Assembly: GCA_015233675.1 (NCBI GenBank)
Contig: JADFXH010000006.1
Location: 65,285 to 129,284, forward strand
DNA from: Candidatus Omnitrophota bacterium
GTDB taxonomy: Bacteria > Omnitrophota > Gorgyraeia > Zapsychrales > Fredricksoniimonadaceae
Reading direction: 5' to 3'
DNA length: 64,000 nt
Shown: piece by piece, positions 9,046-9,880 of the stretch
Numbering within the stretch: position 1 is the first letter of the stretch
Layout: each line of letters starts with the position of its first letter
Notes under the pieces: generated by a model
Told to the model about the DNA's origin: nothing
Database searches by the model: none
The model's input: only the letters and a program-made list of their open reading frames with translations
Made by a program: the position numbers and the translations under genes

Positions 9046-9074
9046 TTGACCGCGAGCCTTCAGGATGATAAAAT
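9046..9074 (+). promoter_or_regulatory. sigma70-type promoter candidate (TTGACC-17-TAAAAT) reading into the repeat region and tRNA-Pro
   Basis: TTGACC at 9046-9051, 17-nt spacer, TAAAAT at 9069-9074. Confidence 0.4.
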
Positions 9075-9100
9075 ATCGCCCTTGTATAACAACAAAGATA

Positions 9101-9490
9101 TTCGGGAAGGCAAGACGGCCTGCGGAAGGCAAACTTTCTGGGAAAGAATTAAGGAGGTTTGCACATCTCCCGGAGTTTTTCTCTATTGATCCCTGAAGGT
9201 TGTTCTTTTAAAGTCTGAGGAAGCGCAAACGGAAGGTAAACTTTCCTAAAAAAGAATTGTGGAAGTTTCCACATCTCCCGAAGCCTTTCTAAAAAAAATT
9301 ATTTCTGAATTCGGGGGGCAAACGGAAGGCAAACTTTCTGGGAAAGAATTAAGGAGGTTTGCACATCTCTCGAAATTTTTCTCTATTGATCTCTGAAGGT
9401 TGTTCTTTTAAAGTCTGAGGAAGCGCAAACGGAAGGTAAACTTTCCTAAAAAAGAATTGTGGAAGTTTACACATCTCCCGAAGCCTTTCT
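9101..9490 (+). repeat. 2 x 200-bp tandem non-coding repeat containing four copies of a ~52-nt structured motif
   Basis: 9123-9290 and 9323-9490 differ at 5 of 168 positions. The submotif GGAAGG(C/T)AAACTTTC..AAAGAATT..GGA(G/A)GTTT(G/C/A)CACATCTC(C/T)CG starts at about 9124, 9231, 9324 and 9431. Confidence 0.9.
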
Positions 9491-9522
9491 AGATGTAATT
9501 CTGATTAGTTTATGGTAGCTTT

Positions 9523-9596
9523 CGGGAAGTAGCGCAGTTGGCTAGCGCGCTTCGTTCGGGACGAAGAGGTCGCCGGTTCAAATCCGGCCTTCCCGA
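9523..9596 (+). tRNA. tRNA-Pro (anticodon CGG), no encoded CCA
   Basis: Manual cloverleaf: acceptor CGGGAAG/CTTCCCG, D stem GCGC/GCGC, anticodon stem CTTCG/CGAAG with loop TTCGGGA, T arm GCCGG-TTCAAAT-CCGGC, discriminator A, G37. Confidence 0.9.
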
Positions 9597-9880
9597 CTTT
9601 TTAGAATTTTCGGCTTCGGATGAGTCCTGTGGAATTTTCGAGAGATTAATTTTATAAAAGAATAAAGATTTTTTTGGATGCGTTGTAAATGTATATCCCC
9701 CAATATGTTGTCTAATCTTGATTAGGCGCCCCCGAGTTTGACAACCCTAAAATATGTGTTACCTTTTAGTAAGGTAACGCTTTCTCTAATCTATTCATTA
9801 TAAATTTTTCTTAGCTTCCCATTAAGTTCCCTGTCTTTATCCCAAAGAGGGGGCGCAGGGAAGTCCAAAAAGGACAAATA

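Follow-up and report, generated by a model that had tools for sequence, protein, structure and literature searches.

The 64,000-nt stretch of Candidatus Omnitrophota DNA analysed here (the window) carries, at approximately 9 kb, a gene for tRNA-Pro with the anticodon CGG, and between the promoter at 9046-9074 and this gene lie four modules of ~100 nt each (Table 1). Upstream of the repeats are lineage-specific genes for a 1442-aa protein, an OprB porin and a 531-aa protein, and downstream of the tRNA follow genes for a 1812-aa HEAT/ankyrin protein, a 294-aa ORF and then acylphosphatase and ligA. The 531-aa protein and the ligA product match proteins of a Candidatus Omnitrophica MAG at 100% identity; look-ups of window proteins by exact sequence gave no recorded entry. 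The interval from fabZ to the acylphosphatase gene (window 1635-16325) holds different very large lineage-specific genes in each species. For the 531-aa ORF (7414-9009) no full-length homologue was found besides itself, and a stretch of ~60 aa within it is 54-81% identical to parts of many otherwise unrelated proteins (GGDEF, methyltransferase, DUF). Elsewhere in the window, the minus strand of 46-1513 has three tandem, pilin-like ORFs of ~165 aa with the prokaryotic N-terminal methylation motif, and 42494-48000 is probably an integrated island, where tRNA-Arg(TCG) is directly followed by a tyrosine integrase gene (42679-43602) and the DNA between 44 and 48 kb is of low GC content (0.34).

Table 1. 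Features of the tRNA-Pro(CGG) leader, number of modules in the window and in related species, and positions of the b-type copies
Feature	Position or genome	Strand	Basis or remark
Promoter TTGACC-17-TAAAAT, TG before -10	9046..9074	+	Sigma-70-like; kept in relatives
Truncated module start, tRNA 5'-end copy TTCGGGAAGGCAA	9101..9113	+	Sequence reading; matches L016 TTCGGGAAGGCAAAC
Module A1	9112..9192	+	Covariance model 85.9 bits; fold; consensus structure
A1 hairpin P1	9129-9139 with 9152-9162
A1 basal helix P0	9123-9128 with 9167-9172
Spacer motif TGTTCTTTTAA after A1	9201..9211	+	boxA-like, weak
Module B1	9219..9300	+	Covariance model 87.3 bits; fold; stem position 2 mismatched (U-C)
Junction copy of tRNA 5'-end motif TTCGGGGGG	9310..9318	+	Sequence reading
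Module A2	9312..9392	+	Covariance model 88.9 bits; P1 pairs 9329-9339 with 9352-9362
Spacer motif TGTTCTTTTAA after A2	9401..9411	+
Module B2	9419..9500	+	Covariance model 90.6 bits; P1 pairs 9436-9446 with 9461-9470, compensatory U-A pair
tRNA-Pro, anticodon CGG	9523..9597	+	ARAGORN; Rfam RF00005, 68.7 bits
Apparent 19-nt fragment of L016/L019 GC-rich element	9611..9629	+	By eye against L019:5431-5451
Inverted copy of A2 3' flank	9633..9646	+	Inverted repeat, 14 nt, 93% complementary
4 modules	This window
2 modules	L016, L038
1 module and a partly deleted copy (~1.5)	L032
1 module	L021, L025, L026, L035
0 modules	L019, L036
b-type copies, ~72 nt	L021:11998-12072, L038:7000-7074, L025:15596-15672, L026:14190-14267

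A duplicated leader of ~200 bp holding four motifs had been described in the first-pass annotation, which was made from the letters alone, and repeat search, alignment and the four copies of a 15-mer agree on it. Specifically, the repeat search returned a direct tandem repeat in two copies (9123-9300 and 9323-9500; period 200, 95% identity), which in the pairwise alignment differ by five substitutions before their tails diverge. The 15-mer GGAAGGYAAACTTTC is present at 9124, 9231, 9324 and 9431, i.e. four times against 0.31 expected by chance. There are four motif cores of ~55 nt in the duplication, two per repeat in the versions A and B, with CGGAAGG-YAAACUUUC...AAAGAAUU...GGA.GUUU.CACAUCUC in common. 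Because the tRNA 5'-end motif TTCGGGAAGG at 9101 recurs as TTCGGGGGG at 9310, the true period is ~210 with the junction included.

The leader had also been described as free of ORFs, which is correct only in part: ORFs of 41-48 aa are present on both strands in the window, and none is possible in the relatives with a single module. The minus-strand 41-aa ORFs (9149-9274 and 9349-9474) were rejected as genes since they span two modules and are thus impossible in those relatives; in L021 a by-eye reading of the minus strand encounters a stop five codons in. AAGGAGG was rejected as a Shine-Dalgarno sequence, since the perfect box is present in the A modules of the window and L016 alone, is paired in the stem and is not followed by a start codon. 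In the window and five relatives only the tRNA reaches the gathering score in Rfam 15, and relaxing the threshold to E up to 10 on 8900-9900 gave only noise, i.e. the search suggested earlier assigned no family to the leader motif. Moreover, ARAGORN and the Rfam tRNA model, applied to the leader region, detected the tRNA at 9523-9597 alone and did not see the modules as tRNA. The array is followed by a tRNA and not by a toxin ORF, as would be the case in a ToxI-like type III toxin-antitoxin layout, and the next ORF after the array and the tRNA encodes the HEAT/ankyrin protein of 1812 aa. An inverted fragment that recurs after the tRNA, likewise pointed out earlier, is real (9365-9378 with 9633-9646, 13 of 14 bases), but it is absent from the relatives and near chance level, with ~0.3 such matches expected in 2 kb according to our own estimate; it is probably a chance match, and pairing between leader and trailer through these segments was rejected on the same grounds.

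Relatives were identified in two ways. One true homologue, L016, came from scanning metagenomes for the 3' half of the motif, and further relatives are contigs that carry ligA homologues of 72-82% identity. With the 5' half, a scan of a genome collection from which the source genome is absent yielded 14 matches, all of them chance ones in coding DNA, and scans of viral contigs with three patterns gave chance matches or none. The locus was recovered from ten related species with the order rib genes, fabZ, variable large genes, promoter, tRNA-Pro(CGG), variable DNA, acylphosphatase and ligA. The number of modules was scored in nine of these species (Table 1), using metagenome assemblies, which can collapse tandem repeats. 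The unit of promoter, module and tRNA is kept in L016, L021, L025, L026, L032, L035 and L038. In the ligA tree L019 is nested among module-bearing species, which suggests that it lacks the module through loss, and L036 is the outgroup; the module is dispensable, because two species are wholly without it. The leader module is, we conclude, real, conserved and undescribed, and not an accident of this genome.

The comparison with relatives also bears on the transcript. The promoter and the tRNA-Pro were both named in the first-pass annotation; ARAGORN and RF00005 call the tRNA, and the same promoter is present in all relatives. A single TTGACC-17-TAAAAT site in the window corresponds to the chance level, but TTGAC(C/G)-17-TA(A/G)AAT followed by GCCCTT is kept in L016, L019, L021, L025, L026, L032, L035, L036 and L038. 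In the module-free species L019 and L036 this promoter lies 25-30 nt from the tRNA; therefore it belongs to the tRNA, and the modules are necessarily in the leader of the tRNA. Thus, as judged from the order of these elements, the region is the 5' leader of a predicted tRNA-Pro(CGG) transcript. Readings of GGCAC and GGAAC as sigma-54 or ECF promoter elements were rejected by eye because the required spacing is not fitted.

For the 11 modules, RNAalifold predicts a 10-bp hairpin (P1) and a basal helix (P0) of five pairs that is interrupted. In the module fold the hairpin has 10-11 bp (GCAAACUUUCU / AGGAAGUUUGC) and an A-rich loop of 12-14 nt, and is closed by the short interrupted helix CGGAAG / CUCCCG, followed by A. 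Homologues having been collected and covariance assessed, as proposed earlier, the hairpin is found to be paired: with one extra closing pair included, 96% of the cells are paired and three pairs have changed on both sides among the 11 modules. Between 0 and 3 of 500 shuffles reach the observed pairing values, and slid controls are 25-63% paired. The covariation is thin (11 similar sequences, with both-side changes in four cells), and P0 is invariant and has a conserved A-C mismatch, which leaves no covariation by which to judge it. Folds of single sequences agree with the consensus hairpin; B1, with its U-C mismatch, takes an alternative structure. An earlier observed change from C-G to U-A in the stem is indeed compensated in copy 4 and mismatched in copy 2. 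The outer stem of the earlier fold likewise holds, but its inner hairpin, CUUUC-UGG-GAAAG, does not: the closing pair forms in only 4 of the 11 copies, and the 73% pairing of this inner helix is owed solely to the A-rich loop. A competing GGAG...CUCC helix proposed at the same time appears as a weak alternative of 4-6 bp in A1, which is the sole terminator-like call, and has no support in the alignment fold. An intrinsic terminator, with a GC-rich hairpin directly followed by a U run, was not found after the hairpin, where P1 is followed by CACAUCUCCCGAA. Against a role as small regulatory RNAs, in which the loop is the usual seed, it may be noted that conservation within the module is lowest in the hairpin loop.

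The module fold argues for RNA rather than duplex DNA. One stem position is U-G in 10 of the 11 copies (the A modules of the window have a second such position), which fits the plus strand only, and for A1 the predicted fold is more stable on the plus strand (-16.6 kcal/mol) than on the minus strand (-10.9 kcal/mol). In addition, the second module of L038 (L038:322-387) has kept the flanks ACGGAAGG and CACCUCUCCCGAA while its hairpin has been swapped for an unrelated one, CCCCG-UCAGAGG-CGGGG. These data bear on the suggestion that the repeats act as DNA, i.e. as an array of inverted-repeat regulator sites downstream of the promoter. The stem arms are nearly invariant, more than a plain hairpin would require, as expected of such sites. 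However, the U-G positions mean that the two arms differ, L038 has replaced the whole palindrome, and half-sites that are 24 bp apart and downstream of the promoter would be unusual; a DNA-level array is thus extremely improbable, and the protein-binding array considered in the first-pass annotation is argued against by the same U-G position.

The spacer after the hairpin raises another possibility, namely that the module acts in cis on elongation or processing, in the manner of boxB and boxA of rrn leaders, and shields a long untranslated transcript from Rho or guides its maturation. The boxB-boxA antitermination signal consists of a hairpin and, after it, a linear motif rich in U, both in the untranslated leader of the rrn transcript (PMC6614797). 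The order here is the same, with UGUUCUUUUAA after the hairpin in the window (9201 and 9401), L016, L021, L032 and L038, and the window motif UGUUCUUUU, which was counted after the A modules and in five relatives overall, matches the E. coli rrn boxA UGCUCUUUA at 7 of 9 positions. However, L025, L026 and L035 have the motif in altered form or lack it, as do the positions behind the B modules, other matches to it in the window fall in coding sequence, and no Nus dependence is known for the locus; moreover, without a leader, as in L019 and L036, there is no need of protection. We therefore regard a signal of this type as very improbable.

The first-module cores are 84-96% identical across eight species, whereas the four-fold degenerate sites of ligA in the relatives are only 39-64% identical to those of the window, and no alignment across relatives is obtained for the spacers that flank the core. 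Together, these comparisons point to purifying selection on the module cores. Module A is identical at 52 of 52 nt between the window and L016, which exceeds the identity of the adjacent tRNA and of the promoter and may be due not to selection but to recent spread or homogenisation.

How the modules came to be in the leader is suggested by their borders. Every module starts with CGG(G)AAG, the first bases of the tRNA. In L021 the pre-tRNA spacer and CGG(G)AAG together form a 22-nt direct repeat, of which one copy stands before the module and the other before the tRNA (z = 6.1; 0 of 500 shuffles), and the B module of L016 has the same pattern of spacer plus tRNA start (z = 4.1). In the window the copies of the tRNA 5' end are 9-10 nt in length and located at 9101, 9310 and 9521; the resemblance between 9101 and the tRNA start that had been read as mimicry is real and represents this duplicated junction. 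Given the repeated junction copies, unequal recombination can add or remove modules. Beyond the 5' flank and 7-10 nt, alignment gave no significant similarity between module and tRNA, and a derivation of the module interior from the tRNA was rejected for this reason. The CUCCCG-A that follows the hairpin resembles the 3' strand of the acceptor stem and the discriminator base. A speculative extension of this likeness, which we rate as very doubtful, is that each module mimics the acceptor stem of tRNA-Pro as a minihelix in which C1-G72 and the A73 discriminator are retained under an exchangeable hairpin cap and would be recognised by tRNA enzymes (RNase P, the CCA-adding enzyme or prolyl-tRNA synthetase). 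In that case small RNAs that mimic tRNA would be released from the leader in amounts determined by copy number, and would exert feedback on the maturation or charging of tRNA-Pro(CGG).

The same tRNA is a site of insertion in the relatives. In the islands of L022:1-9700, L023 and L038:400-4724 a tyrosine integrase gene ends 6-7 nt before a rebuilt tRNA-Pro, and the displaced 5' half of the tRNA, which ends at the anticodon loop, has stayed next to the native promoter and modules, 4-9.6 kb upstream. The L022 island also carries TraG and HTH_17 genes. At the 3' end of the tRNA, a GC-rich insert of ~105 nt is present in L016 (minus strand, about 930-815) and L019 (5376-5493), flanked by 17-nt direct repeats of the tRNA 3' end (GAATCCCGCCTTCCCGA) and with no match in Rfam. 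A duplicate of the tRNA 3' end as mark of an island was not found in the window. The integrase and GC-rich events support an insertional origin of the modules; the tRNA segments that they duplicate are much longer than those in the modules.

These observations would also agree with the modules being scars of site-specific integration, i.e. att-type duplications of the tRNA end together with short remnants left by integrative elements that target tRNA-Pro, as had been suggested earlier. The tRNA 5'-end borders, the 22-nt repeat flanking the L021 module and the hot spot itself (integrase islands as well as the ~105-nt element) are in line with that suggestion, which is partly right as regards origin, but the 84-96% identity between species is left unexplained: neutral decay is expected of a scar, and a decaying scar should neither stay this similar, given 39-64% at four-fold sites, nor keep its hairpin by compensatory changes. 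Furthermore, the integrase events duplicate the tRNA as far as the anticodon loop (~40 nt) and the modules carry 7-10 nt only, and there is no integrase near 9 kb, the only one found in the window being that beside tRNA-Arg at 42.7 kb. Integration scars are therefore an improbable explanation. Compared with integrative elements that target tRNA genes, where direct repeats of tRNA sequence bound the insert and the tRNA stays intact, as in the real cases at this tRNA in the relatives, the modules are non-coding, measure ~100 nt and repeat no more of the tRNA than its first 7-10 nt, together with the upstream spacer.

A covariance model of the leader modules (R1) gave weaker plus-strand matches of 20-27 bits in intergenic regions of L021, L025 and L026. 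A model made from these three copies alone (b-type, as opposed to the a-type of the leader) matches the leader modules back at 19-32 bits and revealed one more copy, in L038, which shares its site with the L021 copy. The b-type copies have UUUCU, an A-rich loop, UUAAGGAA and GCAC.U.UCU in common, and their basal stem differs from that of the leader modules. They are located at the ligA stop (L021 and L038), the nrnA/truB overlap (L025) and between pcnB and rbfA (L026), and they change the ends of ligA, pcnB and truB and supply stop codons and a Shine-Dalgarno sequence (GGAAGGAG). The orthologous sites are empty in other species, and the a-type sites are empty in L019 and L036. Additional copies amount to at most one per sampled locus of ~20 kb and to none in the 64-kb window, where no b-type copy was found elsewhere even with the model filters off. 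An internal "guide", by which the insertion target would pair with the 3' foot of the hairpin, was rejected because such pairing is not significant in the dispersed copies (P = 0.2-0.5). Between pcnB and rbfA, L021 has a GC-rich insert of 205 nt (L021:14394-14598) where other species have 3-6 nt.

The dispersed copies are relevant to the main rival explanation, selfish persistence. In this view a small, non-autonomous hairpin element inserted at the tRNA 5' end and was amplified, and the modules are passengers, either selfish or neutral. They would be tolerated since RNase P trims any leader, and their similarity would be due to recent activity or homogenisation and not to function. A copy number that ranges from 0 to 4 among close relatives, b-type copies that are species-specific insertions, target-like direct repeats that bound the modules, and a module A whose similarity between the window and L016 exceeds that of their tRNAs and promoters all speak for passengers. 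Set against this, the module occupies the same site in eight species at 84-96% identity with diverged adjacent spacers, the search of ~320 kb of sampled sequence, in which the window was scanned without filters, gave no second copy of the a-type, and none of the 16 window ORFs scanned encodes a transposase. Terminal inverted repeats as in MITEs are also absent, the inverted repeat being internal, at the 5' end of the module and without a 3' partner. We consider passengers unlikely, although they carry appreciable weight and rank above integration scars, a boxA-type signal and a DNA-binding array.

Among known hairpin insertions, the Rickettsia palindromic elements form hairpins, have their insertion sites between genes and at the ends of genes, and have spread within particular lineages (PMC1779305). 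These and other REP- or MITE-like elements are hairpin insertions of 70-150 bp, and b-type copies similarly alter gene ends. The family described here differs from them in that its copy number in the sampled DNA is very low and it lacks terminal inverted repeats, and in that the copy in the tRNA leader is fixed at one site across species and tandemly amplified.

We favour an explanation in which the leader modules were derived from an insertion, were retained as structured RNA and were amplified by tandem duplication, and we give it an even chance of being correct. Against it speak the thin covariation, the invariant P0 with its A-C mismatch, the two species without the module, the weakly conserved loop, the complete identity of module A between the window and L016, and the use of metagenome assemblies for the copy numbers. 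Most likely, a short insertion at the tRNA 5' end, with duplication of its target, would have given rise to the module, which would belong to the small family of hairpin insertions that is seen at other gene junctions in the relatives. An old A/B duplication, common to other species, would have been followed by a recent 200-bp tandem duplication in this genome to give A-B-A-B, and the repeated TTTCGG(G)AAG junctions would allow unequal recombination to shift the copy number. Transcription from the sigma-70-type promoter would read through the four modules and then the tRNA, and RNase P would cut the leader from the tRNA. Presumably under constraint on both sequence and structure, the hairpin modules would most likely survive as small RNAs derived from the leader with a dose that follows copy number; alternatively, they may act in cis on the processing or stability of the pre-tRNA. 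Of the readings offered in the first-pass annotation, co-transcribed structured RNAs is thus the best supported, by the promoter upstream of the modules and the hairpin changes that fit the plus strand only, and what has to be given up is its inner hairpin.

The closest known analogue is the repeats of E. coli tyrT and their rtT (rttR) RNA. The 178-bp tyrT unit carries a fragment of the tRNA end, and its copy number varies by unequal crossing-over. In the published account of E. coli tyrT, tandem units lie within the tRNA operon and are co-transcribed with the tRNA, and one unit gives a small RNA (PMC3318445, citing Bosl and Kersten 1991). The locus described here has the same organisation, with tandem modules inside a predicted tRNA transcription unit and a tRNA-end fragment in each. 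The tyrT repeats, however, are 3' of the tRNA and contain its 3' end, whereas the modules are 5' and contain the 5' end, and the phylum differs; the Rfam scans gave no match to rtT, and there is no likeness in sequence or model. Another precedent is the 3' external transcribed spacer of leuZ, an sRNA sponge derived from a piece of pre-tRNA outside the tRNA that is excised and acts in trans (PMC8166272). The leuZ spacer is a single-copy 3' segment of 53 nt with an experimentally shown function, whereas the predicted leader RNA is 5' and repeated, and any targets of it are hypothetical.

The Omnitrophota are, to our knowledge, a phylum known only from metagenomes, and our literature search found no description of non-coding RNAs in this phylum. 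Few spacer-derived RNAs are known from bacterial tRNA operons, and the leader modules, if functional, would be a counterpart of these in the 5' leader. If selfish, they would represent a small family of hairpin insertions able to enter the end of a tRNA gene by target duplication, and tRNA-Pro(CGG) would be a three-way insertion hot spot in this clade. Either way, the covariance model would let annotators recognise the module, and the series from zero to four copies provides a natural experiment on its dispensability.
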